This document shows, piece by piece, positions 2,731-29,644 of a stretch of 64,000 nt of DNA. The notes under the pieces were generated by a model that saw only the letters and a list, made by a program, of their open reading frames with translations, made no database searches and was not told where the DNA came from. Within the stretch, counting starts at the first letter, position 1; each line of letters opens with the position of its first letter. The stretch spans positions 641,210-705,209 of the forward strand of contig JAAEQR010000072.1 in the NCBI GenBank assembly GCA_024231215.1, written 5' to 3'. The stretch comes from PVC group bacterium. Lineage in GTDB: Bacteria > Omnitrophota > Gorgyraeia > B26-G9. The translations under genes and the position numbers were made by a program.

Positions 2731-3360
2731 ATGAAAAAGGTATTTGCAATTATAGCTATGATTACTTTGTTAAGCATTCCTGCGATAGCACAAGCAAACT
2801 TATTGGTCAACGGAAGTTTTGAGCAGGCACCAGGACCTAGCGATCCTCGTTTCCCAGGTTGGGATAGTTCATGGGGTGAAGCATATAATAACTGGTTGAG
2901 AACAGCAACTGCTCCTTATGCTACTGATGGAAGTTGGTATGCAAAGTGTTGGTGGGATGGCGGTATTGTACAGTCTGTAAGTGTCACCGGAGACCAAACC
3001 TATGAATTGCTCTTCGATTGGTGGTGTGCAGATAATGCTGTTGGAGAAGGATGGGCTACTGAAGCAAAGATTGAGTATTTCAATGCTTCAGACATATCTG
3101 TTGGCACTGAGAGTTTTGCCCTTACTAGTTTAGCTGATGGTAATTGGCATGAAGATATTGGCGGAACTACAGTTGCTCCAACCCCAGCGGTAACAGCGGA
3201 ACTCACTTTTTTTACATGGGCGGATGCTACTACCGAACCAGGTAACCCAACAGGTTGGGATAACGTAAGATTTGACGTAATTCCAGAGCCGAGCAGTCTT
3301 TTGCTTTTAGGTACTGGTATTATGGGTATGCTTTCCGCGGTAAGAAAAAAGAAAGCATAA
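2731..3360 (+). CDS. PEP-CTERM domain secreted protein (CBM-like)
   Basis: RBS AAAGGAGG lies upstream of the ATG at 2731. The protein has a signal peptide and ends in 'IPEPSSLLLLGTGIMGMLSAVRKKKA', a PEP-CTERM motif with a TM helix and basic tail. Confidence 0.6.
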   Translation: MKKVFAIIAMITLLSIPAIAQANLLVNGSFEQAPGPSDPRFPGWDSSWGEAYNNWLRTATAPYATDGSWYAKCWWDGGIVQSVSVTGDQTYELLFDWWCADNAVGEGWATEAKIEYFNASDISVGTESFALTSLADGNWHEDIGGTTVAPTPAVTAELTFFTWADATTEPGNPTGWDNVRFDVIPEPSSLLLLGTGIMGMLSAVRKKKA

Positions 3361-13009: not shown

Positions 13010-14272
13010 ATGAAAATGAAAAATTATTTATTCTTGTTTTTGTTGTGTGTGAGTATGCTTTGTATCGATGTCAGTTTTTTGTCGGCAGAAGTAGAGGCTC
13101 CTTTTCCCATGATTACTGTGGCTTCTCCTGAATACGGTGTGTCGGATATTGATACAACTACAGATATATTGGTTACGTTTAGTGGTGTAATGCATAAGAA
13201 ATCAGTAGAGGAAAGTTTTTATATCTTTCCGGAAATAAAAGGGAAGTTTAAGTGGGAAAAAAACACCCTAGTATTTAAGCCGCGTAAGCAATTGCTTCCG
13301 TCTACATCGTATTTTGTTACGTTTACTTCAGGTGTGAAAGGCGCAAACGGGATGCCTCTTATCCTGACGTATTTTAGTACTACCCCACAAGCATTGTGTG
13401 TAGGCCCAGAAGGAGAGTTGCAGATAGTCGGGAAGAATACTCAGGTGGAAAAGCTCAAGGTTAAAGGGAATAATCCTGTGTGGTCATCTGATAACAGCCG
13501 GATTGTATATGATTATGAAGGAGAAATCTGGACGGTAGATAGTGATGGTAAGGATGAAATACAGCTTACTGAAGATGAATCTCTTATTGCCAGCTACCCC
13601 AGATGTAATCCATTTACAGAATTAATTGCTTTTGTTGGAACAAACTCTGCCGGAGGAGCTAATGTTTTTACGGTTGAAACAGAAACAAAGATTATTAGAC
13701 AGCTGACTGCTTTTTTTGATTCACAGGGTGTTAATGAAATTAAATGGTCTCCGGATGGACTTTATTGTGCTTTTCTGCGGGGTGGACAGATCTGGATTAT
13801 GAACCCGGACGGAACGAATATGCGTCGACTGACAACGAATGACTTGCAGTGTGAAGGGAATTTTTCCTGGTCTCCGGCCGGTACCAAGATCGCGTTTTCC
13901 GGAGATGAAAATGTTTGGGTCGGAGATATCTATTCTTTAGAGTTCAGGAAGCTTTCTTTTGATAATCCAAAAACCGGCAGACTTGACTGGGCGAAGAACA
14001 ATAAAGTAGTTTATGAGGCTGAAGGGTTAACAATTATGGATTCCGATGGTAGTGCGGAAATCCAGGTAGCTACAGCCGGTAAAAATCCGCTTTGGATCAA
14101 CTCCGGGAAATATTTAAGTTATATTTTACCGCTTTATAATAAAAAAAATACCGCACAACTCTGGCTAATGAGCGCAGACGGTCTAACTAAAGAAAAGATT
14201 GCTGTTATTGGTGCAGGCAGTGATTTTGTGTCTTGGTCTAAGAATATCGGTTTTTCCCGTTTAAACCAATAA
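13010..14272 (+). CDS. secreted TolB-like PD40/WD40 beta-propeller protein with an N-terminal Ig-like domain
   Basis: Signal peptide and repeated 'W(S)PDG' PD40 motifs ('IKWSPDGLYCAF', 'FSWSPAGTKIAF'). Confidence 0.6.
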   Translation: MKMKNYLFLFLLCVSMLCIDVSFLSAEVEAPFPMITVASPEYGVSDIDTTTDILVTFSGVMHKKSVEESFYIFPEIKGKFKWEKNTLVFKPRKQLLPSTSYFVTFTSGVKGANGMPLILTYFSTTPQALCVGPEGELQIVGKNTQVEKLKVKGNNPVWSSDNSRIVYDYEGEIWTVDSDGKDEIQLTEDESLIASYPRCNPFTELIAFVGTNSAGGANVFTVETETKIIRQLTAFFDSQGVNEIKWSPDGLYCAFLRGGQIWIMNPDGTNMRRLTTNDLQCEGNFSWSPAGTKIAFSGDENVWVGDIYSLEFRKLSFDNPKTGRLDWAKNNKVVYEAEGLTIMDSDGSAEIQVATAGKNPLWINSGKYLSYILPLYNKKNTAQLWLMSADGLTKEKIAVIGAGSDFVSWSKNIGFSRLNQ

Positions 14273-14290: not shown

Positions 14291-15745
14291 TTATGATCTT
14301 CTTCGTAGGTGAGAGGAAGGTATTTTTAATGCGTTACGATACTTGGTTACTGCCCTTCGGGAAATATGTATTCCTTGTTTAGCTAGATTATCTACAATTT
14401 GCTGGTCACTAAGAGGAGTCTGAGGTGACTCTGTTTTGACCATCTCATCGATAGTTACCTTTACTTTCTGACTGGACATATCTCCGTTTTCAGAAGCAAT
14501 AGATTGGCTGAAGAAGTTTTTCAGAGCAAAAGTTCCGTGTGGCGTCTGGATATATTTATTTGCTACCGTGCGGCTGATCGTTGAAGGATGTACCTGCATA
14601 AGTTCTGCAATTTCCTTTAACTTTAAAGGTTTAAGATCGGAAATGCCTTTTTCTAAAAAATCCTGCTGGTATTCAATGATGTGACTAGTTACTTTCTTTA
14701 AAGTCAGCTGTCTTTGTGTGAGTCCACTGATTAGATTTTCTGCACTTTTTAGTTTTTCTTTGATAAACTTCAGTGTTTCTTCAGGGCATGATTTATCTTT
14801 AAGCATTTTTTTGTATAGTTTGCTTATCGAGAATTGAGGGATGTTTTTTGTATTGATAATTATCTCATAATTGTCCGAAGTTTTTTCCAGAAGTATATCA
14901 GGGACTATTCTTAGTGCTTCCTGAGAATAATTGCGGCATGGTTTAGGATCAAGGCGGCTAATGTTATAAACATACTTTTTTATCTGAGGCAAAGATATTT
15001 TTAAAGCTTTACTTATTTTTTGATATTTCTTTGCGGCAAGCTCTGGGAGGAATCCGGCGACAATTGTAGCTTCCGGGGAATCTTCTTTACCGTTACGTTT
15101 TAATTGGATAAGCAGGCATTCTTTTAAATCTCTAGCTGCTACTCCGGAAGGCTCTAACTCTTGTATTTGTTTAAGTATTTCATCAACTTTTTCTACTGTA
15201 CAATTTAAACTTTGGGCGATTTCATCTGTTGAGGTGGGTAAATATCCGTTTTCATTAATGCTTCCGATTATTTGTTCAGCAATTATCCGGTCATCTTCGT
15301 CGGTATTTATTAACCGGAATTGTTGAGTAAGTTCTTCCTGAATTGTGATTGATTTTGTGATCAGGGTTTGCTGAAAATCGTGTTTTTCCATGGATTGGGA
15401 AATTCTATTCTTATCAACGAATTCCGAACTCCAGATATTATCATTACTCAGCCAGTCTAATTCCAGATTAGCGTTATTTTTCTGATCGTCGATTATCTTT
15501 TGATCTACTTCAGTTGGCTCTGTTTCTACGGGTGGGGAAGGCTCAGTTGTTTTGTTCTCCTCTGGGGTATTTTCAGCCGGAGTAGCAATTTCTTCTTCGA
15601 TTACCGGATTAGTGGCTAGTTCTTCAGCAATAAGTTGATTGAGTTCTAAGATCGGCAGCTGCAGGATGTGCATGGACTGCTGCATCTTAGCTGTCATAAT
15701 TAGTTTTTGTACTTGTTTTTGTTGTAGTCGTTGGTGTAGCTCCAT
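14291..15745 (-). CDS. rpoN: RNA polymerase sigma-54 factor
   Basis: N-terminal 'MELHQRLQQKQ...LQLP..EL' glutamine-rich region and a C-terminal RpoN box 'ISRRAVTKYRNALKIP'. An AGGAGG RBS sits 8 nt upstream of the ATG at 15745. Confidence 0.85.
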   Translation of the reverse strand: MELHQRLQQKQVQKLIMTAKMQQSMHILQLPILELNQLIAEELATNPVIEEEIATPAENTPEENKTTEPSPPVETEPTEVDQKIIDDQKNNANLELDWLSNDNIWSSEFVDKNRISQSMEKHDFQQTLITKSITIQEELTQQFRLINTDEDDRIIAEQIIGSINENGYLPTSTDEIAQSLNCTVEKVDEILKQIQELEPSGVAARDLKECLLIQLKRNGKEDSPEATIVAGFLPELAAKKYQKISKALKISLPQIKKYVYNISRLDPKPCRNYSQEALRIVPDILLEKTSDNYEIIINTKNIPQFSISKLYKKMLKDKSCPEETLKFIKEKLKSAENLISGLTQRQLTLKKVTSHIIEYQQDFLEKGISDLKPLKLKEIAELMQVHPSTISRTVANKYIQTPHGTFALKNFFSQSIASENGDMSSQKVKVTIDEMVKTESPQTPLSDQQIVDNLAKQGIHISRRAVTKYRNALKIPSSHLRRRS

Positions 15746-15844
15746 CTTATGTTTTCCTCCTGAGTTCAATTATAACTCAAGTTTAAAAGCAAAGCAAGAT
15801 GTCAATTTGCCGTCGGATGAAAGTTGTGTTATACTCATAACTTA

Positions 15845-17221
15845 ATGGAAAAAATTCTTCTACTTAATCCTCCGGGTAAGCATCAATATCTAAGGGATCA
15901 ATACTGTAGTTCATCGACAAAGGCCGATTATTACTGGCCGCCGGTTGATCTTTTGGTTTTAAGCGGTATTCTTGGTAGTTGTTTTGAGCTGGGGGTATTG
16001 GATGCTATTGTCGAAAGAGTGGATAACGCTTATGTTCTTGAATGCATCGAACATGGTGGCTATGAAGTTGTAGTTGCTTTGTCTTCGGGGGCAAGCAAAC
16101 AAGAAGATTTCGCTTTATTTAAAGAGATAAAGCGGCGTTTTAATATCCCGCTTATTGTTAATGCCGGATTTTTGCGGTTTGATACAGGGGCTTATCTTAC
16201 AAAATATCCATTCATAGACGCAGTGATCACAGATTATACTGAGCCAGGAATCATTGATTTTCTTAAAGGAGAGAGAATTAAATCTCTGAGAGGGATATCA
16301 TATCTAAACAATTCCGGGTTATTGTGCGATTGGAATACAGAAGACGCTGATTTTTCTTATCCAATGCCGCAGCATGAGCTTTTTACTCTGGATAAGTATT
16401 ACTCCCCGCAGGTGAAACAATATCCGTTTAGTTGTGTTATTGTTTCCAGTGGTTGTAAATATAAATGCCGCTTTTGTGCCAATGCCAAGATAAAATATCG
16501 TCGCAGAGATCTGAACAATATCATTGAGGAGTTGCGATATTTGAAAAAGATTGGGATTAATGAAGTGCATTTTCCCGATTTTACGTTTACTGCGGATCGG
16601 GAGCATTGTTTGGGAATTTGCCGGGTAATGATTAAAGAGGACTTAGGTATGTCCTGGGATTGTTTGACCCGGGCTGACTGCTTTGATGAAGAACTCGCTT
16701 GTATAATGAAGCAAGCCGGGTGTCACACTATACAGTTTGGACTTGAATCAAAAAATGAGACAGTGCTTAAAAACATGGCTAAACCCATGAGAAACGAAGT
16801 AGTAAGAAAGGCTTTTTCTGCATGTCGCAAGCTTGGGATTGAAACTTTGGGGTTTTTTATTATCGGATTACCGGGGGAAAATAAACAGAGCATAAAAGAT
16901 ACAGTGGCTTTTGCCCGGGAGCTTGATTGTGATTATGTTTCTTTTTCGATATTTGTGCCGGATTTTGGCAGTGATATTCGGGATGAACTAATAGAACAAA
17001 ATCCAGAGCTTAAGAATGTGGAGTGTTTTGACCGGACTAAATTCCCGGTTTTGGGAAATGAGTTTTTGAGTAAAGATGATATCTGGGGTTTAAGAAAAAA
17101 AGCATTAAAGGATTTTTATTTTCGTCCTGGGTATATCTGGAAGCGTTTGAAAAAGATGAAAAGTTTGACTGATTTAAAATCTGCGGTTCGGATCTTCGGG
17201 ACGCTGTTGCGAGGTTGCTAA
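15845..17221 (+). CDS. class B (B12-binding domain) radical SAM protein 1
   Basis: N-terminal B12-binding-like Rossmann region and 'SSGCKYKCRFCAN' (CxxxCxxC). The ATG at 15845 lies about 10 nt downstream of a TTGCCG, 17-nt spacer, TGtTATACT promoter, so the mRNA may be leaderless. Confidence 0.7.
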   Translation: MEKILLLNPPGKHQYLRDQYCSSSTKADYYWPPVDLLVLSGILGSCFELGVLDAIVERVDNAYVLECIEHGGYEVVVALSSGASKQEDFALFKEIKRRFNIPLIVNAGFLRFDTGAYLTKYPFIDAVITDYTEPGIIDFLKGERIKSLRGISYLNNSGLLCDWNTEDADFSYPMPQHELFTLDKYYSPQVKQYPFSCVIVSSGCKYKCRFCANAKIKYRRRDLNNIIEELRYLKKIGINEVHFPDFTFTADREHCLGICRVMIKEDLGMSWDCLTRADCFDEELACIMKQAGCHTIQFGLESKNETVLKNMAKPMRNEVVRKAFSACRKLGIETLGFFIIGLPGENKQSIKDTVAFARELDCDYVSFSIFVPDFGSDIRDELIEQNPELKNVECFDRTKFPVLGNEFLSKDDIWGLRKKALKDFYFRPGYIWKRLKKMKSLTDLKSAVRIFGTLLRGC

Positions 17222-18495
17222 TGAAGATAGCGATTATTGGTGCAGGGATAAGCGGGCTTTTAACGGCATATTATCTAAAGGGGTATGCGGATGTTACTGT
17301 ATATGAAAAAGAAGCAGATGCCGGCGGCTTAAGTGCGAGTATAGCTCATGACGGAATTCGGGTTGAAAAATATAATCATTTTATAAGTGTAAAAGATGAG
17401 GAATTTATCCGGGTAGTGTCTATGTTGGGCCTTGAAGAAGAGCTGCAGTGGGCCCGGGTAAAGCACGGGTTTATTCTGGGGGATAATTTGTGGGGCATGA
17501 ATACCCCAGGAGAGTTGTTTTTCTTTTCTCATTTAAGTTGGACGGGGAAAATCAAGCTGGCAAAGTTTATGATAAAAGCGAGTTTGCGTTCCGATGCCCG
17601 GGATTTGCAAGATATAAGTGCTAGAGATTGGATAGAGAAAGAATGCGGCAAAGATGTATTTAGGAGTTTTTTTGAGCCGCTTTTAGAGTATAAATTCACG
17701 CACTTTGAAGATGTAACAGCTGCGTATTTATGGGCGAGAATAAATGAAGGAAAGAAGAATAAAATAGGATGTTTGCGTAATGGCTTGGATGTCGTATTTG
17801 GAGAATTAAAAAAACAGGTAAGTCAAAAGGCACAGGTTTTGTTCAACAGTCCGGTAAAGAAGATTGTGAAAAATGATTCAGGTCTTTGGAGGGTGATTAC
17901 AAATAGGGAAGATAAATTATATGATCTGGTGATCTCTACCATATCAATAAAACAGACTTCACAGCTTGGACCGGAATTGTTGAAAATTACCGGGGATTTG
18001 AACCGAATTGATTATCTTAGCGTGTCTTCTTTGATCTTAGCAGTGGATCAGCCTTTAAAAAACGGCTGGTGGCTGTTTATGGCTGATCAGGGGCACGGGG
18101 GAAAATTCGGGATGAGGGTAGTTGTGGATGCTTTTTTTATTGCCGGTAAGAATTTTGTTTATTTCCCGGTCTATCAGCGTCAGAGTCAGGAGTCTATAAT
18201 CGAGAAAGAACAATTGCTGCAGGAGTGTTTCCAAGTCTTAAAAAGAATAAATCCTGGTTTTAATGAAGCATGGGTTAAAAAACATTATTTTTTCCAGGAT
18301 AAGTTTGTAGAACCGGTACTGAATAAGAATTTTTTCAGGTTGCTGAATGTATTACCAGAAGATAGTAAAGGTCTATATATCCATGAAGCGGTATTTCAAG
18401 AAGGACTATTGAAAACTTTAAATACATCTGCGATAAAAAGCAGAATTATCGCAGAACAGATAAGGAATAATGATGTACGGAACAATTCAGGTTGA
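17221..18495 (+). CDS. FAD/NAD(P)-dependent oxidoreductase (amine oxidase / phytoene desaturase-like fold)
   Basis: 'IAIIGAGISGLLTAYYL...VYEKEADAGGL' dinucleotide-binding motif. TAATG overlap with the upstream gene. Confidence 0.7.
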   Translation: MKIAIIGAGISGLLTAYYLKGYADVTVYEKEADAGGLSASIAHDGIRVEKYNHFISVKDEEFIRVVSMLGLEEELQWARVKHGFILGDNLWGMNTPGELFFFSHLSWTGKIKLAKFMIKASLRSDARDLQDISARDWIEKECGKDVFRSFFEPLLEYKFTHFEDVTAAYLWARINEGKKNKIGCLRNGLDVVFGELKKQVSQKAQVLFNSPVKKIVKNDSGLWRVITNREDKLYDLVISTISIKQTSQLGPELLKITGDLNRIDYLSVSSLILAVDQPLKNGWWLFMADQGHGGKFGMRVVVDAFFIAGKNFVYFPVYQRQSQESIIEKEQLLQECFQVLKRINPGFNEAWVKKHYFFQDKFVEPVLNKNFFRLLNVLPEDSKGLYIHEAVFQEGLLKTLNTSAIKSRIIAEQIRNNDVRNNSG

Positions 18496-19381
18496 TTTAG
18501 ATGGTCTCTGGACATATCGGCGTTATTTTGGGCAGAGCCAACCGGGATCAGCAGAGGTAGTAGACCCTGTTTATGCCGAAGGGCTAATGCGTTTTCTGGA
18601 ATTATTTAAAAAGTATAATGTGAAAGCTACTTTTTTTATTGTGGGTAAAGATGCTCAACAGCCGGAACAACGAAAACTTATTGCGAGGCTTGTTGAAGCA
18701 GGGCACGAGATTGCTAATCATACAATGTCTCATCCTCAGCACTTTAATCTTCTTTCTGCAGAACAAGTAGAAGATGAAATTTCAGATTGTGATAAAATCC
18801 TACAGGAGATAGGGACAAAAGCTATCGCTGGTTTCCGGGCTCCGGGGTTTAGTATTCAGGCTGATACGTTATCAATATTGAGGGAAAAAGGGTATATGTA
18901 TGATACCTCGGTTATTCCCTCATCTTTGATTCCGTTTATTATGAATATTTCTCATTCTATTTTGCGTCGTAAGCCGGTGTGTATGGGGGCAGGCAGGATA
19001 GGGTTTGGTTTTGCGCCATTGGATGTATATAATCCGGACCAAAAGAGGATTTGGAAAAAAGGGGACAGTTTGTTGTTTGAGGTGCCGGTTTCTGTAATCC
19101 CTGGATTACGGTTGCCTTTACATAGTTCATATGTATTTATGTTTGGAAAAGGGTATTTTAGATACGGATTAAAGCGTTTACAGAAAAATAATGTTTCACC
19201 CTGCTATTTGTTTCATGGGATAGATTTGGTGGATTTGGAAAAACAGAAAGTAAGCATTCCGTTTTTTAAAACTTTAGAAAAAAGATTGAATGTCTGTGAG
19301 TATATTATAAAATCTTTTAGCAAGAAGTATGAATTGTTAACAACCAGACAGCTGGTCCAGACGAATGGGATGGGATTATGA
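18470..19381 (+). CDS. polysaccharide deacetylase (NodB/ArnD-like)
   Basis: 'EIANHTMSHP' NodB motif and 'RAPGFS'. It overlaps the upstream gene. Confidence 0.7.
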   Translation: MMYGTIQVDLDGLWTYRRYFGQSQPGSAEVVDPVYAEGLMRFLELFKKYNVKATFFIVGKDAQQPEQRKLIARLVEAGHEIANHTMSHPQHFNLLSAEQVEDEISDCDKILQEIGTKAIAGFRAPGFSIQADTLSILREKGYMYDTSVIPSSLIPFIMNISHSILRRKPVCMGAGRIGFGFAPLDVYNPDQKRIWKKGDSLLFEVPVSVIPGLRLPLHSSYVFMFGKGYFRYGLKRLQKNNVSPCYLFHGIDLVDLEKQKVSIPFFKTLEKRLNVCEYIIKSFSKKYELLTTRQLVQTNGMGL

Positions 19382-20121
19382 TTTATATTCTTTTACCCGC
19401 ATATAATGAAGCGAAAAACATAGAAGCTGTAGTTTCTGGAATCAGTGGGGTTTTACTGGATAAAGAATACTGTATTGTTATTGTAAACGATGGTAGTACG
19501 GATAATACTCAGGATGTGATCTCAGGATTATGTAGAGGGGTGCCTGAGTTGAAAAGCATTAATTTTCCAGAAAATCGTGGTGTGGGAGAGGTTTTTAAGC
19601 AGGGGATAAAGTATGTTTCTGAGTTGGCTCTGAAAAATCAGGACATACTTATTTCTTTAGATTGTGACCGTTCTCATCCAGCCAATGCAATTAATGGAGT
19701 TATCGAAGCGTTGGAGGCAGGGAATGATATTGTTGTTGCTTCGCGATATCATCCACAAAGTAAAACGCAAGGGTTACCGTTTGTTCGGGAATTAATGAGT
19801 AATACTATAAATTTTTGGCTGAAAGTCTTTTTCCCTTTAAAAGGGGTAAAAGATTATACTACTTTTTTCCGCGGATACAGAGTCGGTTTATTACTAAAAG
19901 CGCAGGAGCATTACAGAGAATCTTTCATTGCGGAAAAGGGATTTTCCTGTATGGCTGAGATATTGATAAAACTACGCAGGTTTAGACCTAAAGCAACAGA
20001 GGTTCCTCTTGTGTTACGGTTTGATTTGCGTACCGGTAGAAGCAAGATGAAAGTACTGGAAACGATCGCAGGTTATCTACGTTTAATACTAGATTATTTT
20101 CTTTTTTCAAGAAAAAGGTAA
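19378..20121 (+). CDS. GT2 glycosyltransferase (polyprenyl-phosphate sugar synthase, DPM/ArnC-like)
   Basis: 'LLPAYNEAKNIEAVV', 'VNDGSTDNT', 'DCDRSH' and C-terminal hydrophobic helices. Confidence 0.75.
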   Translation: MIYILLPAYNEAKNIEAVVSGISGVLLDKEYCIVIVNDGSTDNTQDVISGLCRGVPELKSINFPENRGVGEVFKQGIKYVSELALKNQDILISLDCDRSHPANAINGVIEALEAGNDIVVASRYHPQSKTQGLPFVRELMSNTINFWLKVFFPLKGVKDYTTFFRGYRVGLLLKAQEHYRESFIAEKGFSCMAEILIKLRRFRPKATEVPLVLRFDLRTGRSKMKVLETIAGYLRLILDYFLFSRKR

Positions 20122-21512
20122 GAGAACAAGTATCCGCCTAATTTTGCCAGATGTATTATTTCCCGGGGATCTTTAAGTTTTTTTAACAGGGATAGCAGGA
20201 ATCCGGGGCTGAAAACATATCTTAGATAAATCTGCTTTTGAAGTTTTGTTAATTTTTCTGCAGATACATGTTTTGTTCCCCAGTGGGGCGTAGAGTGCAT
20301 GAAATTAAACTTTGACCAGTCAATATCCTTTATCATACCCTCTTTTTTCATAATCGAGTAGATCTCTGTTCCTGGATAAGGGCAGATAATGCCTAATTGA
20401 AAGATATCTGGCTTTATCTGACGAATTAGCTGTTCTGTTTGCTTAATATCTTCGATATCCTCATCCGGATGAGTTCCTAAAATAAAAAACCCGCAAGCAA
20501 CAAGGCCGGCTTTATGGGTGAGCTTAAAAGCTTTTTTAACCTGATCTATCGTAATATTCTTTTTCATGAGTTTAAGCATTTTAGGACTGCCGGATTCTAC
20601 CCCATAAGCGATTTTTAAACAGCCGCAATCAGCCATTTTCTTGATGAATTCTTTGTCGACAAAACTTACCTTTGTCTGACAATCCCAGGTTAATCCCAGT
20701 GATTTAAGACCATCACAGATTTTAAAAAAGCGATTTCTGTCCAAGGTGAAATTTGTATCTTCAAAAGTTATATGATTATACCCGTATTTATCTTTACATT
20801 CGGTAAGTTCCTGAATGACATTTTCCGCACTTCTAAAGCGTACTTTTGGGCCGGATGTTTTTTTTACGGCACAGAAGGTGCAGTCTTGTGAACAACCCCG
20901 GGAAGTAAATACTACGGTAGATCTTTTACCGGACATGTTGATACCGGCGGCGTAAATATGTTTATATTGTTCCGGGCAAAGTAGAGAGCGGTCTGGGAAT
21001 GGTAGAGAATCCAGATTTTCAATTGGTGCTGTCGGAGTATTGACCAGAATATTATTGTTTTTTCGATAAGCAATTCCCGGGATGGCAGCAGGAGTCTTTT
21101 TTTCTTTTATTGCTTGGCAAAGCTTGGAAAACGCAATTTCACCTTCGGTAATTACAATATAATCGAATGCCGGGAAATTGCGCAGTGATTCTTCCGGGAG
21201 AGCTGATACATGCGGGCCTCCGGCAACTGTCTTGATCTTTGGATCGAGTTTTTTTAATAATTGTGCAACGTTGTGTGCATTCTTGATTGTCGGGGTCATG
21301 GAAGTGATCCCGGCGATTGATATATTTTCAGTCTCTATCCTTTTTTTGATTATATCTGGGTTGTAATCTTCTACTTCAAAGTCCCAGATAGATACTCCAA
21401 ACCCTTTATTTTTAAGAAAGGTTGCCAGGTAGAGGATATTGATTGGTTCCTGGATAAGGATTTTTTCAAAAACACCAGATATCTTGGGGGGTCTTATTAA
21501 TGCGATATTCAT
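20094..21512 (-). CDS. class B (B12-binding) radical SAM protein 2
   Basis: 'TSRGCSQDCTFCAV' cluster motif and a B12-binding N-domain. Convergent with the GT2 gene, overlapping it by 28 nt. Confidence 0.75.
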   Translation of the reverse strand: MNIALIRPPKISGVFEKILIQEPINILYLATFLKNKGFGVSIWDFEVEDYNPDIIKKRIETENISIAGITSMTPTIKNAHNVAQLLKKLDPKIKTVAGGPHVSALPEESLRNFPAFDYIVITEGEIAFSKLCQAIKEKKTPAAIPGIAYRKNNNILVNTPTAPIENLDSLPFPDRSLLCPEQYKHIYAAGINMSGKRSTVVFTSRGCSQDCTFCAVKKTSGPKVRFRSAENVIQELTECKDKYGYNHITFEDTNFTLDRNRFFKICDGLKSLGLTWDCQTKVSFVDKEFIKKMADCGCLKIAYGVESGSPKMLKLMKKNITIDQVKKAFKLTHKAGLVACGFFILGTHPDEDIEDIKQTEQLIRQIKPDIFQLGIICPYPGTEIYSIMKKEGMIKDIDWSKFNFMHSTPHWGTKHVSAEKLTKLQKQIYLRYVFSPGFLLSLLKKLKDPREIIHLAKLGGYLFSYLFLEKRK

Positions 21513-21632
21513 ATCAATATTTTGTTCCTTTTTGAAAGATATTCGATAGTATGATAGAATCTATAGTATCTTGATTTCTCTTACAAGTCAATATCCGGGC
21601 GAGTGCTACCTATTACCAAAAGAGATGTTTTA

Positions 21633-23129
21633 ATGACCCAAAAGATAAAAAAAATAATGCTGATTTTTCCTACGGGAAAAGTTTTAAAAGGGCATTTTCA
21701 TCATTGTGAAATTCCAATGGGATTAGCGTATTTAGCGGCGGTGTTGCGTGATGATTTTGAAGTTAAGGTATTGGATGGTAGGGCAAAGTTTAAAAGAATA
21801 GTTGTTCCAGGAAGCAAATGGGAGTATTTTGGCTATACGCCCCAACAGATACTGGAACAAATAAAAGAATACTCACCGGAAGTAGTTGGTATTAGCTGTC
21901 TTTCTTCTTTTCACTTTCCTGATGTAATAGACCTGTTCAAGAAAATAAAAAAAGCGGATAAAAACATTATTACCGTAACCGGCGGGACGCATCCTACATT
22001 TCTTGCAGATCAGGTTATGAGCCGGCATCCGGAAGTTGATTTTATTGTGCTGGGAGAGGGAGAGGAAACTTTCCGTAATTTGCTTTTAGCGATTGATTCA
22101 GGCTCTCGATATCAGGGGTTGGATGGTTTGGCTTTTCGGAATGACAATGACGGAGAGGTTAGAGTTAACCCCAAAACGCAGTATATTAAAGAGCTGGATA
22201 GTTTGCCTTTCCCTGCACTTGATTTGTTTCCATTGGATTTTTATGAAAAGAAAAGTATTCCATTTAGTGTTACCTGTCGGAGTAAAAAGACAGCGCCGAT
22301 TTTAACTAGTCGCGGTTGTTCATCTAGCTGTGTATTTTGTGCTTCCAAAAACTATTGGGGAAGACATTATCGCATGCGATCAGCTAAGAATGTTCTGGAT
22401 GAAATTGAATATCTGATTAATAAGTACGGGGTTAAAGAAATCCAGTTTATCGATGATAATTTAACGTTGGATAAAAAACGGGCGATAGATATCTTTAACG
22501 GTATTATTGAAAGGAAACTGGATATTTACTGGAATACTCCCAATGGGGTTGCGGTGTGGACACTTGATGAACCACTTTTGGAATTAATGAAAAAGAGCGG
22601 GTGCTATGAATTAACTGTGGCATTTGAAAGTGGAGATCAGGATGTGCTGAATAAAATAATAAAGAAGCCGCTTAATCTTCAATATGCGGCGCGTATGGTT
22701 AATAAGATGAAAGAGCTGGGTATTCAAGTTCATTCTTTCTTTATCTCAGGGTTTCCCGGAGAAACAAAGGAGCAAATATTGCGAAGTTTTGCTTTTGCTA
22801 ATAAGATGGATTTAGATAGCGCCTGGTTTTTTATTGCTAATCCTACTCCTGGATCTGAATTGTATGATATTTGTGTGGAAAAAGGGTATATAAGTAAGGA
22901 TTTTTCTTTTGAAGATATAGAATATAATCTGCCGCATATTGAAACTGAAGATTTCACGAAGCAGGAGGTGGAAAAACTGGTCTTAACACAATTTAATAAA
23001 TATAATATAAGCCTCATTTTTCGGCATCCTATGCGGTTTTTTAAAAAGTATATGATTTTAATGATTACGCATCCGATTATGACATTTAGAAGTATCTTTG
23101 CTGATTTGGTAAAAATTATAGGAAAATGA
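21633..23129 (+). CDS. class B (B12-binding) radical SAM protein 3
   Basis: 'TSRGCSSSCVFCAS'. Paralogue of the next gene: same length, with shared 'SRGC...FC', 'YR.R' and 'WNTPNG' blocks. Confidence 0.75.
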   Translation: MTQKIKKIMLIFPTGKVLKGHFHHCEIPMGLAYLAAVLRDDFEVKVLDGRAKFKRIVVPGSKWEYFGYTPQQILEQIKEYSPEVVGISCLSSFHFPDVIDLFKKIKKADKNIITVTGGTHPTFLADQVMSRHPEVDFIVLGEGEETFRNLLLAIDSGSRYQGLDGLAFRNDNDGEVRVNPKTQYIKELDSLPFPALDLFPLDFYEKKSIPFSVTCRSKKTAPILTSRGCSSSCVFCASKNYWGRHYRMRSAKNVLDEIEYLINKYGVKEIQFIDDNLTLDKKRAIDIFNGIIERKLDIYWNTPNGVAVWTLDEPLLELMKKSGCYELTVAFESGDQDVLNKIIKKPLNLQYAARMVNKMKELGIQVHSFFISGFPGETKEQILRSFAFANKMDLDSAWFFIANPTPGSELYDICVEKGYISKDFSFEDIEYNLPHIETEDFTKQEVEKLVLTQFNKYNISLIFRHPMRFFKKYMILMITHPIMTFRSIFADLVKIIGK

Positions 23130-24649
23130 TAGAGTCTAAGCAGAAGATAAATAAAATATTACTTATCTTTCCAGCAGTTATTTTTTCTGGAGAGAGTCCA
23201 AAACAGATAATGCCGCCGTTAGGGATAAGTTATCTGGCGGCCTACTTAAGGCCTGATTATGAGGTAAAGCTGCTTGATGCGGCAGTAGAAGGGTATAATC
23301 AGGAAAGCAGGATTTCTACGCGTTTCTTCCAATATGGTCTGGATAACGATCATATTCGTAAAAGAATAATTGATTTTGCTCCGGATGTAGTTGGGGTTTC
23401 ATGTTTGTTTTCCAGCCAGTTTCTGTCTGCTGCTTCAGTTTGTGCGATAGCTAAGAATGTTTCGCCGGAAATAGTAACTGTTATGGGAGGGACTCACCCG
23501 ACTTTTTTAAGTGAACAGTGTTTAGCTGATAGGAATATCGATTTTATCGTGAGGGGGGAAGGCGAACGGACATTTAAAGAGTTACTGGATTGTTTGCGTT
23601 GTGGACAGTCATTTAAAGATGTAGGAGGTATTGCTTTTAGGCAGGATAATCTGGTGCGGATAAATCCAGCTCCAATGATTGCAGAAGATATTGACCGGAT
23701 TCCGGTTCCGGCAAGAGATTTATTACCGCTAGAGAAGTATTTTCAGATTAATATGCCGATGGGATTGATAAGTAGACAGACTCCGGCAATGAACATGATT
23801 ACTTCCCGGGGATGTTCTTTTGATTGTTCTTTTTGTTCTTCCTGTCATTTTTGGGGAAGGCGTTATCGCCCGAGGTTGGTAGAAAATGTATTGGATGAAA
23901 TGGAACAATTGAAAGATATGGGTATTAAAGAGCTGAAATTTTTTGATGATAATCTTACGCTTGACCGGGAACGTGCGAAAAAATTATTTCGAGGAATGAT
24001 TGCTCGTAAATTTAATTTTTCCTGGAATACTCCGAATGGAATTGCGGCGCAGACATTGGATGAAGAAATGGTTCTCCTAATGAAAGAAAGCGGGTGTTAT
24101 GAGATCACCCTGGCCGTGGAAAGCGGGGATGAGCAGATTCTGCGTGATGTCTTGAAAAAACCGATTAATTTAAAGCATACACTTCATATCGCCGAAATAA
24201 TTAAAAATTGCGGTATTGATACCTATGGATTTTTTATTATTGGATTTCCCCAGGAGACAAAAAAACAAATATATAATACACTGCATTTCATGGATAAGAT
24301 CAGGCTGGATAGAATATCATTGTTTATTGCCAATCCTTTGCCGGGTACGGAGATATATCGTATTTGCCGGGAAAAAGGATATTTGTCGGGAGATTTTGAG
24401 CAAAAGCCGTTAGACTATTTTCAATCGGTATTTCAGACTCCTGAGTTTGACTCAAAATTTTTAGAAAGCACGCGACGTCGATGGTACTGGAGGTACAACA
24501 GTAAACTCTTATTAAGAAACCCTTTTAAATTTTTCCGGAAGTATAGTATATTTATATTTAAACGACCGTTATTCTTATTGCGGATAATTATTAATAAATT
24601 AATCGTTCCGAGTTTAAATTATGCAAGAAACCAAACAGAAAAAAAATAA
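23126..24649 (+). CDS. class B (B12-binding) radical SAM protein 4 (tandem paralogue)
   Basis: 'TSRGCSFDCSFCSS'. ATGA overlap with the upstream paralogue. Confidence 0.75.
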   Translation: MIESKQKINKILLIFPAVIFSGESPKQIMPPLGISYLAAYLRPDYEVKLLDAAVEGYNQESRISTRFFQYGLDNDHIRKRIIDFAPDVVGVSCLFSSQFLSAASVCAIAKNVSPEIVTVMGGTHPTFLSEQCLADRNIDFIVRGEGERTFKELLDCLRCGQSFKDVGGIAFRQDNLVRINPAPMIAEDIDRIPVPARDLLPLEKYFQINMPMGLISRQTPAMNMITSRGCSFDCSFCSSCHFWGRRYRPRLVENVLDEMEQLKDMGIKELKFFDDNLTLDRERAKKLFRGMIARKFNFSWNTPNGIAAQTLDEEMVLLMKESGCYEITLAVESGDEQILRDVLKKPINLKHTLHIAEIIKNCGIDTYGFFIIGFPQETKKQIYNTLHFMDKIRLDRISLFIANPLPGTEIYRICREKGYLSGDFEQKPLDYFQSVFQTPEFDSKFLESTRRRWYWRYNSKLLLRNPFKFFRKYSIFIFKRPLFLLRIIINKLIVPSLNYARNQTEKK

Positions 24650-26642
24650 ATTCAGAAGTATTGATGCTTTGATCATTGGAGGTGTTTTTTTTGTCGCCTT
24701 TTTTCTGAGGCTTGTCTATTTGTATCAGTATAAAAACAATCCTTTTTTTCTTAGCCCTGTTATTGATGCTTTATCTCACTACTTGTACGCTATGCGAATG
24801 TCCCAGGGGGACTGGTTGTTAAAGGGGGAGGTTGTTGGGCGTGCGCCCTTATATGTGTATTTTTTGGCGTTTCTTTTTAAAATGTTCGGCTCCGGATATT
24901 TTGCAGCGCGTATTGTGCAAATGCTGCTTGGTGCTTTAAATTGCGTTTTAGTCTATTTCTTGGGTAAAAAAGTGTTTAATAGATATGTGGGTGCGATCGC
25001 TGCGTTTATTTGTAGTGCCTACGGGGTATTGATTTATTTTGATGCTGAGTTTTTATACGTTGGGTTGGGAATATTTGTAAATCTGTTATTGTTATTATTT
25101 GTTTTGCATACAGTAGAAAGTCCCCGGTTTTGGAAATGGATTTGTTGTGGAATGCTTTTTGGTATGGGGTTGCAGACAAATGCGTTAATAATTTTATTTT
25201 TGCCGTTTTTACTTATCTGGATATATTTATATAGCAATAAAAAAGCAGTTACTGCGGTGCTTCTGGTTGTGCTTGGGGCTGTAGTTTTTGTTCTTCCTTT
25301 TGCCCTGCGCAATTATTTGGAGGGTGGTGACGTTATGCTTATTTCTTCGGCGGCAGGGATTAATCTTTATATTGGTAATAATCCAGGTGCTGATGGTAAA
25401 AGTGCTTTTGTACCATCCCGGGATTTTTCATATGCAGAAGGCTGGCAGGATAATGTTTTAACTTCTTCGATTAAGGCTGCTGAAAGAGAACTCGGACATG
25501 AATTGACCCCGTCAGAGGTTTCGCGATTCTGGACTTTAAAAGCAGCCAGCTTTATTTTAAAAGATCCCGGGAGTTTCTGTTTGCTTTTAATAAGAAAGTT
25601 TTTTTACTTTTTCAACGGTTATGAAATTGCCGAAAACCAAAGTATTTATTTCTTTCGGGTCTGGTCGTCTCTTTTGAAAATTACCGTATTTGAAAATTCC
25701 GTGATTGCTTTTCCTTTTGGGCTGATATGTCCGTTTGCTTTATTGGGGATATTTGTATCCTTTAGGAAGGGTAAAGGAGCTCATCTGCTTAGATTTTTTG
25801 TGCTGGCTAATTTTATATTATTGATGATTTTCTTTGTCTGCAGCCGGTATCGTACTAATGTAGTGCCGTATTTTATTATTTTTAGTGCGTACGGAGTATT
25901 CTGGATTTTTAATAATTTAAAGAAGAAAAATTTTAAGCCGGTAGTATGCTCTGTCTTTCCCTTGTTGCTGCTATCCTCGTTTAGTAATTCCACTTTATTA
26001 GGTGTCAGGGAAGAGGACGATTCCCGGTGGTTTTTTAATTTAGGTGCTGCATTTAGTTATAAGGGACAAAAAGAAAGAGCTTTAAAATCTTTTCAAAGCG
26101 CAAAAGATATAAATCCTAAAAATCCGGATGTTTTATATAACTTGGGAGTATTATATCTAAAAAAAGGGGATGAGCAGCAAGCAGCCGAAGAATTTGAGCA
26201 GGTAGTTGAGATCGATCCGGATGATTCTGCTGCACATACTAATTTAGGTATCGTTTATTTTAGACAAGGGAAGTTTGAAAAGGCAATCAAAAGTTATGAG
26301 GCTGCTTTAGGTATTGACGAAGAAGATATAGGTGTGATGGTGAACTTAGGTGCTGCGTATACCAAGACCGGAGATTTTTCAAATGCCTCGGTTGTGTTTA
26401 AGAAAGCAAAGTCTTTGGAGCCTGGTTTTGCGCCGTTGCATCAGCATCTCGCTATACTTTATGAAAAAACAAATGATTATAAAAATGCGGAGATGGAGTA
26501 TTTATTAGCCATACAGCAAAAGCCTGATTATTTTGAGGCTTATAATAACCTTGCTTTGTTATATGAAAAAATGGAGCAGCCTGAAGAAGCCAAAGTGTAT
26601 CGTCTTAAAGCCCTTGAAATCCTGCCGGATATGACGCATTGA
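24621..26642 (+). CDS. GT-C family (ArnT/PMT, GT39/83-like) membrane glycosyltransferase fused to C-terminal TPR repeats
   Basis: About 12 predicted TM helices N-terminally. The C-terminus has at least 6 TPR units ('AAFSYKGQKERALKSFQSA', 'NLGVLYLKKGDEQQAAEEF' and others). Confidence 0.65.
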   Translation: MQETKQKKNKFRSIDALIIGGVFFVAFFLRLVYLYQYKNNPFFLSPVIDALSHYLYAMRMSQGDWLLKGEVVGRAPLYVYFLAFLFKMFGSGYFAARIVQMLLGALNCVLVYFLGKKVFNRYVGAIAAFICSAYGVLIYFDAEFLYVGLGIFVNLLLLLFVLHTVESPRFWKWICCGMLFGMGLQTNALIILFLPFLLIWIYLYSNKKAVTAVLLVVLGAVVFVLPFALRNYLEGGDVMLISSAAGINLYIGNNPGADGKSAFVPSRDFSYAEGWQDNVLTSSIKAAERELGHELTPSEVSRFWTLKAASFILKDPGSFCLLLIRKFFYFFNGYEIAENQSIYFFRVWSSLLKITVFENSVIAFPFGLICPFALLGIFVSFRKGKGAHLLRFFVLANFILLMIFFVCSRYRTNVVPYFIIFSAYGVFWIFNNLKKKNFKPVVCSVFPLLLLSSFSNSTLLGVREEDDSRWFFNLGAAFSYKGQKERALKSFQSAKDINPKNPDVLYNLGVLYLKKGDEQQAAEEFEQVVEIDPDDSAAHTNLGIVYFRQGKFEKAIKSYEAALGIDEEDIGVMVNLGAAYTKTGDFSNASVVFKKAKSLEPGFAPLHQHLAILYEKTNDYKNAEMEYLLAIQQKPDYFEAYNNLALLYEKMEQPEEAKVYRLKALEILPDMTH

Positions 26643-26845: not shown

Positions 26846-27403
<558 letters not shown>

Positions 27404-28366: not shown

Positions 28367-29644
28367 ATGAGTTTATTGATAAAAAACGGAAGAGTAGTTG
28401 ATGCGAAAAATAAACAAGACGGTGTGTTTGATATATTAGTCGAAGGGGCTAAAATATCCAAGATTGCAAAAAATATTGTGAGCAAAGATGATAATGTTTT
28501 TGACGCTAAAGGAATGCTTGTAGTCCCGGGATTAATAGACTTGCATGTGCATCTTAGGGAGCCGGGATATGAATACAAAGAAACAATACTTAGTGGCAGC
28601 CAAGCTGCTGCGCGAGGTGGATTTACAAGTATTTGCTGTATGCCGAACACAAACCCGGTCATCGATAACCAGGGTGTAGTGGATTTTGTTTTCGCAGAAA
28701 GTAAAAAAGCCGGATTAGTAAATGTTTTTCCGGTCGGAGCAATTACTAAGGGTTTAAAGGGAGAGGATCTGGCGGATATTGCAGATATGAAAGAATCAGG
28801 AGTTGTTGCTCTTTCTGATGACGGTTATGAAGTTGCAAGTGCGGCACTTTTAAGAATGGCCATGGAATATGCATCGATGTTTGATCTGCCGATTATTGCG
28901 CATTGTGAAGATAAAGAACTTTCAAGTGGTGGAGTTATGAATGAAGGGTACATGTCTACGGTACTTGGTTTAAAAGGCATTCCGCGAGTGGCTGAGATAA
29001 CTATGGTTAGCCGGGATATTGAACTTGCTCGTTTTACAGGGACAAAATTGCATATTGCACATGTAAGCTGTAAAGAGTCTGTAGCATTAATAAAGAAAGC
29101 AAAAAAAGAAGGAGTCAAAGTAACTTCGGAATGCTGCCCTCATCATTTTAGTTTAACTGAAGAGGCTGTTGAGCAGTATGATACTAATACAAAGGTCAAT
29201 CCACCGTTACGTACAAAAGAAGATGTTGAAGCAATAAAAAAAGGATTGAAAGACGGAACTATAGATTGTATCGCTACGGATCATGCTCCGCATTCAATTT
29301 CTGAAAAAGATACCGAGTATGATCTGGCTCCGTTTGGCATAATTGGCAGTGAAACAGCTCTAGGATTGGTTATGACCGAATTAGTGGATAAAGGGATATT
29401 ATCTATAGAGCAGGTAGTGGAAAAGATGGCATTGAATCCGGCAAGAGTTATCGGTCAGGATAAGGGGTATTTATCCGAAGGTGGTTGTGCGGATATTACT
29501 ATAATTGATCCAAAGCAGGAATGGGTTGTGGAAAAGGATGGATTTGTTTCCAAATCAAGCAACTCGCCTTTTATCGGAAAAACACTTACCGGTCAGGTTA
29601 TGGCGACTATTGTTTCCGGAAAAATAGTGTTTGAAAAGAGTTAA
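28367..29644 (+). CDS. pyrC: dihydroorotase
   Basis: 'DLHVHLREPG' metal-binding motif. About 425 aa. Confidence 0.9.
   Translation: MSLLIKNGRVVDAKNKQDGVFDILVEGAKISKIAKNIVSKDDNVFDAKGMLVVPGLIDLHVHLREPGYEYKETILSGSQAAARGGFTSICCMPNTNPVIDNQGVVDFVFAESKKAGLVNVFPVGAITKGLKGEDLADIADMKESGVVALSDDGYEVASAALLRMAMEYASMFDLPIIAHCEDKELSSGGVMNEGYMSTVLGLKGIPRVAEITMVSRDIELARFTGTKLHIAHVSCKESVALIKKAKKEGVKVTSECCPHHFSLTEEAVEQYDTNTKVNPPLRTKEDVEAIKKGLKDGTIDCIATDHAPHSISEKDTEYDLAPFGIIGSETALGLVMTELVDKGILSIEQVVEKMALNPARVIGQDKGYLSEGGCADITIIDPKQEWVVEKDGFVSKSSNSPFIGKTLTGQVMATIVSGKIVFEKS

Follow-up and report, generated by a model that had tools for sequence, protein, structure and literature searches.

A conserved Omnitrophota gene cluster with four radical SAM proteins as a candidate pathway for cell-envelope glycosylation through a lipid-linked amino sugar

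The window analysed here, a stretch of 64,000 nucleotides of contig JAAEQR010000072.1 (GCA_024231215.1) from a PVC group bacterium of the Omnitrophota, contains eight intact open reading frames (ORFs) between rpoN and pyrR. They encode four radical S-adenosylmethionine (SAM) proteins (rSAM1 to rSAM4), an FAD oxidoreductase (the flavoenzyme), a NodB-type deacetylase, a family 2 glycosyltransferase (GT2) and a GT-C glycosyltransferase fused to an array of tetratricopeptide repeats (GT-C/TPR). We propose that this cluster encodes a conserved cell-envelope glycosylation pathway that runs through a lipid-linked amino sugar tailored by radical SAM enzymes, a reading to which we give a probability of about 0.5. 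It builds on the observed family and fold assignments, intact motifs, conservation in relatives and linkage of the core genes in other phyla. Named homologues of the proteins of this region were from Candidatus Omnitrophota/Omnitrophica, and the G+C content of the window is about 38% with a positive GC skew throughout.

The preliminary description of this DNA had placed the cluster at 15824-26642, and ORFs were found at exactly those positions. The four CxxxCxxC motifs that it quoted were all recovered, at 16454-16477 for rSAM1, 20871-20894 (minus strand) for rSAM2, 22317-22340 for rSAM3 and 23813-23836 for rSAM4. The ORFs carrying them are full-length and have conserved orthologues and are thus not pseudogenes. 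The presence of a GT2 gene, a NodB-type deacetylase, a GT-C enzyme with a C-terminal TPR array and an FAD/amine-oxidase-like enzyme was likewise confirmed, as was the position of rpoN directly upstream. A separate lipopolysaccharide cluster was also found as described, with lipid A and core genes (LpxK, LpxL-like, GT9) at 55-63 kb.

An identical order of the cluster genes was found in five other distinct Omnitrophota-type contigs, namely L092 (the same as L001, GCA_004196255.1), L091 (the same as L002), L095 (near-identical to L003), L094 and L096. The shared order was pyruvate kinase, a Big_5/beta-propeller protein, rpoN, rSAM1, flavoenzyme, NodB, GT2, rSAM2, either no or two extra B12-binding radical SAM genes, rSAM3, rSAM4, GT-C/TPR and pyrR. 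The gene set is therefore syntenic in related genomes, and the random juxtaposition that the preliminary description had considered as an alternative was ruled out. As shown in Table 1, rSAM2, rSAM3 and rSAM4 were as conserved as the flanking pyruvate kinase and RpoN, indicating purifying selection comparable to that on core genes; this level of conservation suggests that the product matters for viability. When metagenomes were scanned with the rSAM2 alignment using very strict patterns, seven loci were recovered, mostly on contigs already found. The extra radical SAM genes of some relatives indicate that the tailoring steps of the pathway are variable. They are two B12-binding radical SAM genes of very divergent sequence between rSAM2 and rSAM3 (L001 14501-17498, L002 15946-18808, L094 2331-5367), which brings the total to six radical SAM genes; one of these extra proteins matched the ladderane-lipid model best, with 139 bits, below the cut-off.

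Table 1. Genes of the cluster, flanking genes and promoter-like sites in the window, with the range of amino acid identity to the window proteins across the five related contigs.
Feature	Position	Strand	Assignment	Identity (%)
Pyruvate kinase (flank)				59-66
RpoN (flank)	14291..15769	-		59-65
Sigma-70-like hexamers before rSAM1	15807..15835	+	TTGCCG-17-TATACT with TG; consensus match only	
rSAM1	15845..17221	+	Class-B-like radical SAM, HpnJ/AprD4-like, without detectable B12 signature	52-58
Flavoenzyme	17215..18495	+	FAD oxidoreductase, amine-oxidase/PPOX/phytoene-desaturase fold, PRK07233	35-45
NodB/CE4-type deacetylase	18470..19381	+	PF01522, intact motifs	44-55
GT2	19378..20121	+	Polyprenyl-phosphate glycosyltransferase type (DPMS/GtrB/ArnC/PpgS/GacI-like), PF00535	51-58
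rSAM2	20094..21512	-	PF02310 + PF04055	62-67
Promoter-like site, rSAM2/rSAM3 gap	21532..21591	+	TTGAAA-17-TAGAAT; consensus match only	
Promoter-like site, rSAM2/rSAM3 gap	21532..21591	-	TTGACT-17-TACTAT, divergent; consensus match only	
rSAM3	21633..23129	+	PF02310 + PF04055; nearest Sden_1168/PhpK methyltransferase branch	58-74
rSAM4	23126..24649	+	PF02310 + PF04055; paralogue of rSAM3	64-71
GT-C/TPR	24621..26642	+	PMT_2 membrane domain fused to C-terminal TPR array, 673 aa	48-58
PyrR (flank)	26855..27403			

Partners from the cluster were also found beside rSAM1 homologues in other phyla, in all three neighbourhoods retrieved for homologues of 41-44% identity. In Chloroflexota (L099) the order was methyltransferase, rSAM1, methyltransferase, NodB, GT2 (241 aa), DUF2304, methyltransferase and two PMT_2 genes, and the NodB protein of this locus scored 173 bits against that of the window. 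L100 has the order NodB, methyltransferase, B12-binding radical SAM, GT2 and rSAM1, where the B12-binding protein is rSAM2-like (281 bits); this locus also holds a DegT aminotransferase, a sugar epimerase/dehydratase and another B12-binding radical SAM gene. In Aminicenantales (L098), rSAM1 overlaps a methyltransferase gene and sits between two PMT_2/PMT genes. The best model for the GT2 of L099 was PpgS, and for that of L100 it was AglJ, with PpgS third. Furthermore, plasmid 1 of Lawsonia intracellularis (L102) encodes an rSAM1 homologue of 25.6% identity and has two DUF2304 genes next to a GT2 gene, together with GalE, SIS/HAD/GHMP heptose-type genes, five class I methyltransferases, a second radical SAM protein and a DUF2142 membrane protein.

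In other bacteria, homologues of rSAM3 and rSAM4 stand in arrays, with four to eight paralogues each. Of the three such arrays retrieved, two (L089 and L090) adjoin YfhO and/or PMT_2 GT-C genes, and one of them also a gene for a TPR protein. Genes similar to rSAM2 were found both with GT2 and rSAM1 (L100) and with rSAM3-like arrays (L089 and L090). In the resulting co-occurrence network rSAM1 is tied to GT2, NodB, PMT_2 and rSAM2, and rSAM2 is tied to rSAM3/rSAM4 and the GT-C genes. A tblastn search of rSAM3 against plasmids gave only remote relatives of at most 32% identity. In L088 (Deltaproteobacteria CP070770.1, 8556-21224), L089 and L090 the class-B radical SAM genes number seven to nine, and several of the encoded proteins are about 50% identical to rSAM3. 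An alpha/beta hydrolase gene was present in all three, a SPASM radical SAM gene in L089 and L090 and a methyltransferase gene in L089. The rSAM3-like arrays with the hydrolase look like an uncharacterised recurring locus type in their own right.

All four radical SAM proteins belong to the radical SAM superfamily, as they matched PF04055 with E values of 1e-22 to 1e-24 and carry CxxxCxxC, the cysteines of which were invariant in orthologue alignments. The preliminary description had taken all four as B12-binding. This was true of rSAM2, rSAM3 and rSAM4, in which PF02310 was detected at 82-90 bits (cut-off 32.1), placing them in class B with predicted use of cobalamin. In contrast, the only Pfam match of rSAM1 was Radical_SAM, and no PF02310 match was found in it at E<=0.01 with the whole protein or at E<=1 with aa 1-185. 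The AlphaFold2 model of rSAM1, made with 50 homologues (pLDDT 93.7), comprises an N-terminal Rossmann-like domain and a radical SAM barrel. Its best full-length structural match was AprD4 (6fd2, query TM-score (TMq) 0.77), followed by TsrM, MgmA, OxsB and TokK. The cluster thus encodes three proteins with a B12 signature and a fourth that is class-B-like in architecture only.

AprD4, the enzyme of apramycin C3'-deoxygenation, is a cobalamin-free 1,2-diol dehydratase whose structure contains the bound aminoglycoside paromamine. Like rSAM1 it has two domains, with a B12-like domain that lacks the B12 signature; its substrate carries a glucosamine ring, and it has a redox partner, the reductase AprD3, while the coupled partner of rSAM1 is the flavoenzyme. 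However, AprD4 and rSAM1 are only 21% identical, and the partner of rSAM1 is of the FAD type rather than the AprD3 type, its place being taken in other phyla by class I methyltransferases. The resemblance may serve as a lead on mechanism and is not evidence of membership. By sequence, the best annotated tblastn relatives of rSAM1 were true HpnJ proteins (27-29% identity). The rSAM1 family is large: at E<=1e-20 it counts 1,388 database proteins, and homologues of about 40-44% identity were found in Aminicenantes, Chloroflexota and Coatesbacteria. Both rSAM1 and rSAM2 are about 30% identical to one another and to the remaining paralogues, and rSAM3 and rSAM4 are 43% identical, the four proteins forming three subfamilies. 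The general statement that class-B enzymes typically methylate was not safe here, since neither HpnJ nor AprD4, the closest characterised relatives of rSAM1, is a methylase.

A long insertion was observed between the first strand and the first helix of the N-terminal domain of rSAM1 (aa 10-28, 15872-15928). Fifty family members from several phyla share the invariant pattern R-D-x2-C-x4-K-x2-Y-x-W-P-x2-D-L there. In true B12 enzymes the cobalamin would sit where this insertion lies, which is a possible substrate or cofactor site. The mechanical ORF of rSAM1 starts at TTG 15824, and the database protein starts at ATG 15845, which is likely the true start.

Scores against NCBIfam models were used in place of a phylogeny with characterised class-B enzymes. 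None of the four proteins reached any equivalog cut-off. HpnJ (TIGR03471, cut-off 577.6) was the best model for rSAM1 (171.8 bits) and rSAM2 (210.5 bits) and gave 206.3 bits for rSAM3 and 171.8 bits for rSAM4; with such scores, a true HpnJ was rejected. The BchE model gave 98-173 bits (cut-off 481.35), the HemN, HemZ and HemW models about 28-32 bits (cut-offs 205-653) and the AprD4 model NF033070 75-117 bits (cut-off 500), with 106 bits for rSAM1. The concern that the radical SAM proteins might be housekeeping enzymes of the BchE or HemN type was thereby removed. For rSAM3 and rSAM4 the best curated family was Sden_1168 (NF038361), with alignments of near full length and 307.6 and 314.9 bits, respectively, below the cut-off of 575. 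The PhpK model (TIGR04479, cut-off 600) gave 120-146 bits. Their nearness to the Sden_1168/PhpK methyltransferase branch makes methylation the most plausible chemistry for rSAM3 and rSAM4. Phosphonate P-methylation was nevertheless rejected because the cluster contains no phosphonate genes such as that for phosphoenolpyruvate mutase. At E<=1e-30 the rSAM3 family has more than 3,000 database proteins. The mechanical ORF of rSAM3 starts at GTG 21603, and the true start is likely ATG 21633.

The deacetylase matched PF01522 with 85.4 bits (cut-off 23.1, E 3.9e-24), and DUF2334 was also above its cut-off, which identified a NodB protein of carbohydrate esterase family 4 (CE4). The motifs D-x-D (VDLD, 18491-18502), H-x4-H-x3-H (HEIANHTMSH, 18704-18733), R-x-P-x-F (FRAPGF, 18833-18850) and L-P-x-H-S (LPLHS, 19112-19126) were kept across the orthologues and in the Chloroflexota homologue of L099. 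The best model for the deacetylase of the cluster was the XrtA-system polysaccharide deacetylase, at 84.7 bits and below the cut-off.

The GT2 protein, small and soluble (247 aa), matched PF00535 with 77 bits and has a DxD motif (LDCD, aa 94-97, 19657-19668). The best solved relative in the PDB was the dolichol-phosphate mannose (Dol-P-Man) synthase of Pyrococcus furiosus (5mlz, E 5e-20, aa 3-238), followed by GtrB and ArnC. Among NCBIfam models PpgS was best, then PgfS, PgaC_IcaA, ArnC, AglJ and a Dol-P-hexose transferase, all below cut-off. A GT-A domain with DxD and nearest relatives within the clade place the protein among the polyprenyl-phosphate glycosyltransferases (DPMS/GtrB/ArnC/PpgS/GacI). 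Membrane anchoring was not evident, as no transmembrane (TM) segment was found in the 247 aa and no DUF2304 gene in the cluster. A GT2 with a DUF2304 protein is an experimentally defined pair for the synthesis of polyprenyl-phosphate-linked N-acetylhexosamine (HexNAc), as in GacI/GacJ and PpgS/Rv3632; the former makes N-acetylglucosamine (GlcNAc)-P-undecaprenol for the GT-C enzyme GacL, and the latter polyprenyl-P-N-acetylgalactosamine (10.1101/180810). The window resembles the GacI/GacJ/GacL and PpgS/Rv3632/Rv3779 systems in that a small GT2 of the same clade, with PpgS as best model, is paired with a GT-C enzyme, and L099 and L102 carry DUF2304. However, the window lacks DUF2304, adds NodB, the flavoenzyme and four radical SAM proteins, has its GT-C fused to TPR, and scores far below the equivalog cut-offs.

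The GT-C/TPR protein matched PMT_2 (PF13231) with 47.8 bits (cut-off 26.1) and many TPR families. Hydropathy analysis gave about 11 hydrophobic segments and a K/R-rich N-terminus. The layout is of about 11 TM helices in aa 1-460 and a TPR array in aa ~461-673 (nt ~26001-26642). Candidate acidic residues lie in VIDAL of the first outward loop (24759-24773, D49) and in FDAEF (25038-25052). From hydropathy and the positive-inside rule, the N-terminus is predicted to be cytoplasmic and the TPR array, which follows the last predicted in-to-out helix, to lie outside the cytoplasm. A similar layout is known from the eukaryotic protein O-mannosyltransferases TMTC1-4, PMT_2/ArnT-like GT-C enzymes that use a polyprenyl-P-sugar, whose membrane part can be aligned with helices 1-11 of ArnT and whose TPR array is non-cytoplasmic (PMC7801869). 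The window protein is bacterial, in contrast, and is likened to TMTC by architecture only. This architecture points to a protein rather than lipid A as the acceptor.

The flavoenzyme contains PF01593 (Amino_oxidase) and PF13450 (NAD_binding_8) and scored 286.7 bits against NF005560 (PRK07233), above the cut-off of 252. This family is annotated only as "hypothetical protein", so that membership gives no function. When the AlphaFold2 model (pLDDT 91.6) was compared by Foldseek, CgoX/PPOX and rice phytoene desaturase ranked first (TMq up to 0.82), ahead of amine oxidases. The fold is clear, with amines, ring carbons and lipid chains as possible targets. Close homologues (35-46% identity) were all from Omnitrophota-type genomes where named. 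The flavoenzyme is thus specific to the Omnitrophota version of the pathway, and class I methyltransferases hold the rSAM1-coupled position elsewhere. In a scan of genome contigs, the matches listed included only distant relatives (at most 28% identity) without cluster partners beside them, a result dominated by the generic FAD-binding N-terminal pattern, and it says little either way. Two relatives of 24-28% identity adjoin a flippase-like LPG_synthase_TM gene of the GpgF/AglD2 type (L005, 8959-11338) or a PMT_2 GT-C gene (L007, 169-3083), a hint that membrane glycoconjugate pathways may be the general setting of PRK07233 flavoproteins.

In the pathway that we propose, the small GT2 would load HexNAc from a nucleotide sugar onto polyprenyl phosphate at the cytoplasmic face, and NodB would remove the acetyl group to give polyprenyl-P-hexosamine; the family of the one and the catalytic motifs of the other are observed, and the substrates are presumed. 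By analogy with HpnJ and AprD4, rSAM1 would then abstract a hydrogen from the hexosamine ring and dehydrate or rearrange it, and the translationally coupled flavoenzyme would carry out the follow-up redox step. The proteins with B12-binding domains, rSAM2 to rSAM4, may add further modifications, C-methylation being most plausible for rSAM3 and rSAM4. The finished lipid-linked sugar would be flipped by a flippase encoded outside the cluster, and the PMT_2 GT-C, as its architecture suggests, would transfer the sugar to an acceptor outside the membrane, where the periplasmic TPR array probably selects a protein. The step of rSAM1 was placed after that of NodB because its closest characterised relatives, HpnJ in sequence and AprD4 in structure, have or are assigned a glucosamine ring as substrate. 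HpnJ has been implicated genetically in the ring contraction of lipid-bound glucosamine, a step preceded by those of HpnI, a GT2, and HpnK, a deacetylase (PMC13459092).

In a more specific form, the radical SAM enzymes would act directly on polyprenyl-P-hexosamine, with deoxygenation or rearrangement of the ring in the manner of HpnJ/AprD4 by rSAM1 and the flavoenzyme and with three C-methylating, cobalamin-dependent paralogues; the product would be an amino sugar not seen before, with many changes at its carbons, and would be transferred in TMTC-like manner by GT-C/TPR to periplasmic or surface proteins, as a core, housekeeping-level trait of Omnitrophota with simpler versions in Chloroflexota, Aminicenantes and Desulfovibrionaceae. 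We put this form forward only tentatively.

Several points weigh against the proposed pathway. All substrates are inferred, as are the sequence of the steps, the acceptor and the reaction of every radical SAM protein. No flippase, nucleotide-sugar or DUF2304 gene was found in the cluster of the window, and we know of no characterised radical SAM enzyme that acts on a polyprenyl-phosphate-linked sugar. The best fold matches of the flavoenzyme act on phytoene and protoporphyrinogen, so that a lipid chain fits as well as a sugar. Synteny in the Omnitrophota contigs extends to the flanking pyruvate kinase, rpoN and pyrR genes and could therefore partly reflect descent rather than function, and it does not by itself prove coupling. 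The cross-phylum support comes from few loci, of which three concern rSAM1, three concern rSAM3 and two are plasmids. The GT-C proteins of other phyla are not orthologous to that of the window (phmmer, no match at E<1e-4), and of the three rSAM3-array loci two have GT-C genes but no GT2 within 10 kb, while L088 is without a GT-C gene.

An alternative is a route like that of HpnI/HpnK/HpnJ or of calditol, in which GT2 attaches GlcNAc directly to a membrane lipid, the acetyl group is removed by NodB, and one or both of rSAM1 and rSAM2 contract the ring to an aminocyclitol; the product would be a structural glycolipid head group instead of a glycosyl donor, and GT-C would have a separate role. 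A GT2, a deacetylase and a class-B-like radical SAM enzyme working on lipid-bound glucosamine are exactly the logic of HpnIKJ, with a further likeness to the calditol synthase Cds, and HpnJ is the nearest genetically characterised relative of rSAM1 and rSAM2 (PMC13459092). It is also the top NCBIfam model of both and, as noted above, the best annotated tblastn relative of rSAM1. Moreover, GpgSDF and HexSDF show that a glycosyltransferase and a deacetylase can make amino-glycolipids directly (PMC12713373). However, the HpnJ scores are far below the cut-off and similar for all four paralogues, GT2 matches polyprenyl-P glycosyltransferases and not HpnI, and the deacetylase is NodB-type, the HpnK model TIGR03473 not being among its matches. 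True HpnJ occurs only in genomes with the squalene-hopene cyclase SHC and HpnH (PMC12324291). No hopanoid gene was found in the scanned ORFs of the window (about 21 of its 51 ORFs of at least 150 aa, at about 30.9-47.8 kb, lay outside the scan). A GT-C is present in the cluster, and the repeated linkage with PMT_2 GT-C and DUF2304 genes favours a lipid-linked donor. We therefore consider this alternative unlikely.

The cluster could also be a composite of separate units that are merely collinear, where the first unit makes a modified sugar and the third has another task, for example to C-methylate by radical chemistry a protein or peptide that the TPR array recognises. Three transcription units with promoter-like sites in the gaps would allow this, collinearity alone proves little where relatives share the gene order of the whole region between pyruvate kinase and pyrR, and arrays like rSAM3/rSAM4 occur elsewhere without GT2 or NodB. 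Models of methylases acting on ribosomally synthesised and post-translationally modified peptides (ApyD, TIGR03975) gave 118-188 bits for rSAM2 and rSAM3 and 91-153 bits for rSAM4. In contrast, the gaps of the cluster fit no ORF of precursor-peptide size, and the TPR array fused to GT-C would sit outside the membrane, away from the cytoplasmic radical SAM enzymes. PMT_2 genes co-occur with the core of the first unit in other phyla, and rSAM2-like genes occur both with genes of the first unit and with rSAM3-like arrays. An assembly of unrelated units thus seems improbable as well.

A role of the radical SAM enzymes and the flavoenzyme on hydrocarbon chains, by coupling, cyclisation, methylation or desaturation like that of Mss, Grs, Gmm or HpnP, with GT2 and NodB supplying the head group of what would be an unusual membrane lipid, has less in its favour and appears rather remote. 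Many characterised modifiers of lipid tails are B12-domain radical SAM enzymes (PMC13459092). Mss homologues were counted in 15 of 267 metagenome-assembled genomes of Omnitrophota, where their gene context was not described (PMC11868695). The best fold matches of the flavoenzyme include phytoene desaturase, and the ladderane-lipid model gave 75-115 bits. However, no gene for fatty-acid, glycerol-ether or isoprenoid synthesis was found in or beside the cluster, the HpnR and ladderane scores are lower than those of HpnJ and Sden_1168 and all are below cut-off, and the recurring partners are sugar-handling genes and GT-C genes.

The preliminary description had seen the logic of ArnC/ArnD/ArnT in the cluster. 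This likeness stood, in that a lipid-P-HexNAc synthase, a deacetylase and a GT-C enzyme are present by family assignment and recur in unrelated phyla, and the Arn system also has a GT2 that loads undecaprenyl phosphate, a deacylase (ArnD, likewise NodB-type) that trims and a GT-C that transfers in the periplasm; the proteins are not Arn orthologues, however. LgmABC and FlmF2/NaxD/FlmK are systems analogous to Arn. A true system of the Arn, Lgm or Flm type adding a cationic amino sugar to lipid A phosphates is very improbable and was rejected: lipid A genes (LpxK, LpxL-like) do lie in the same window and ArnT was the sole NCBIfam match of the GT-C membrane domain, but ArnC (41.8 bits, cut-off 529), ArnD (18.1, cut-off 382) and ArnT (23.6, cut-off 567) all scored far too low, genes of the ArnA and ArnB type (formyltransferase/dehydrogenase, aminotransferase) are absent from the cluster, the four radical SAM genes would have no role in such systems, and ArnT has a periplasmic domain (PMC7801869) where the GT-C of the window has a TPR array.

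In its proposed mode of action the cluster resembles the Arn, Gac and Ppg systems of loading on polyprenyl phosphate, trimming, flipping and GT-C transfer, combined with the HpnIKJ logic of GT2, deacetylase and radical SAM enzyme, and by curated thresholds it is a member of none of them. A literature search found no description of it, which agreed with the earlier statement that no characterised pathway has this gene combination. To our knowledge, the lipid-linked donors of GT-C enzymes (Arn, Gac, Ppg, Gtr, PMT) undergo no more than simple trimming, for example deacylation, before they are transferred. If the proposed pathway is correct, radical C-H chemistry would be added to the lipid-linked sugar stage, and functions would be found for large orphan branches of class B, with more than 1,300 (rSAM1) and more than 3,000 (rSAM3) database proteins. 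It would also identify a core envelope trait of the Omnitrophota, a phylum that is for the most part uncultured and whose members are very small and may depend on a host. The simpler versions in other phyla would be more tractable entry points, in particular the locus of Lawsonia intracellularis, a named isolate with a complete plasmid record.

From the overlaps of stop and start codons, three transcription units were defined: rSAM1-flavoenzyme-NodB-GT2, rSAM2 alone, and rSAM3-rSAM4-GT-C/TPR. The start of the flavoenzyme gene overlaps the stop codon of rSAM1, and rSAM4 is translationally coupled to rSAM3. The three intergenic gaps of 75, 120 and 212 bp leave no room for a small precursor-peptide gene or a flippase gene. 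The sigma-70-like hexamers in the 75-bp gap preceding rSAM1 (Table 1) end 9 nt before ATG 15845; should they be real, the transcript would have little or no leader, too short to hold a Shine-Dalgarno sequence. In the promoter and terminator scan, the number of sigma-70-like sites in the region was not above chance. A scan for sigma-54 elements (TGGYAY-N5-TTGCW, one mismatch allowed) gave 7 matches against 7.7 expected, none of them upstream of any cluster unit, and a regulatory link of the cluster to the adjacent rpoN was rejected. Since no sigma-54 element lies near the cluster and relatives keep the same gene order all the way from pyruvate kinase to pyrR, the adjacency of rpoN looks incidental.

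The genes for GT2 and rSAM2 lie on opposite strands and converge, their 3' ends overlapping by 28 bp in the window (20094-20121), by 32 bp in L001 (12873-12904) and by 20 bp in L003 (12975-12994). Through effects on termination or by antisense transcription, this conserved overlap could couple the expression of the two genes.

The gene at 13010-14272, which every related contig has directly next to rpoN and the cluster, encodes a protein in which a Big_5 Ig-like domain and a beta-propeller of the PD40/DPPIV type were found. Its N-terminus is hydrophobic and probably a signal peptide, and the protein is a putative envelope protein; a role as acceptor would be pure speculation.

Other features were noted elsewhere in the window. 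Its first part (196-3360) has genes for a DUF3485 protein, for one that is GH26-like and for one that carries a PEP-CTERM sorting signal; DUF3485 is the EpsI-type exosortase-associated family, and these genes suggest an exosortase system. The 415-aa ORF at 29644-30891 had no Pfam match at E<=1e-5, starts with DLHIHSKYSRA and contains CPECGKNLTVG, and presumably resembles proteins of the PHP-domain/zinc-finger endonuclease Q type. The minus strand at 49786-52866 encodes a protein of 1,026 aa that combines Sel1 repeats with a WD40-type beta-propeller; nowhere else in the window than in the stretch holding this gene does the GC skew drop to about zero and the G+C content to 34-36%. Two unusual fusions were found at 56209-60269, one of Lip_A_acyltrans with an ELM1-like domain (648 aa) and one of a GT4 with a GT9 heptosyltransferase (704 aa), and a second NodB-type deacetylase is encoded after these lipid A/core-region fusions, at 61311-62111.

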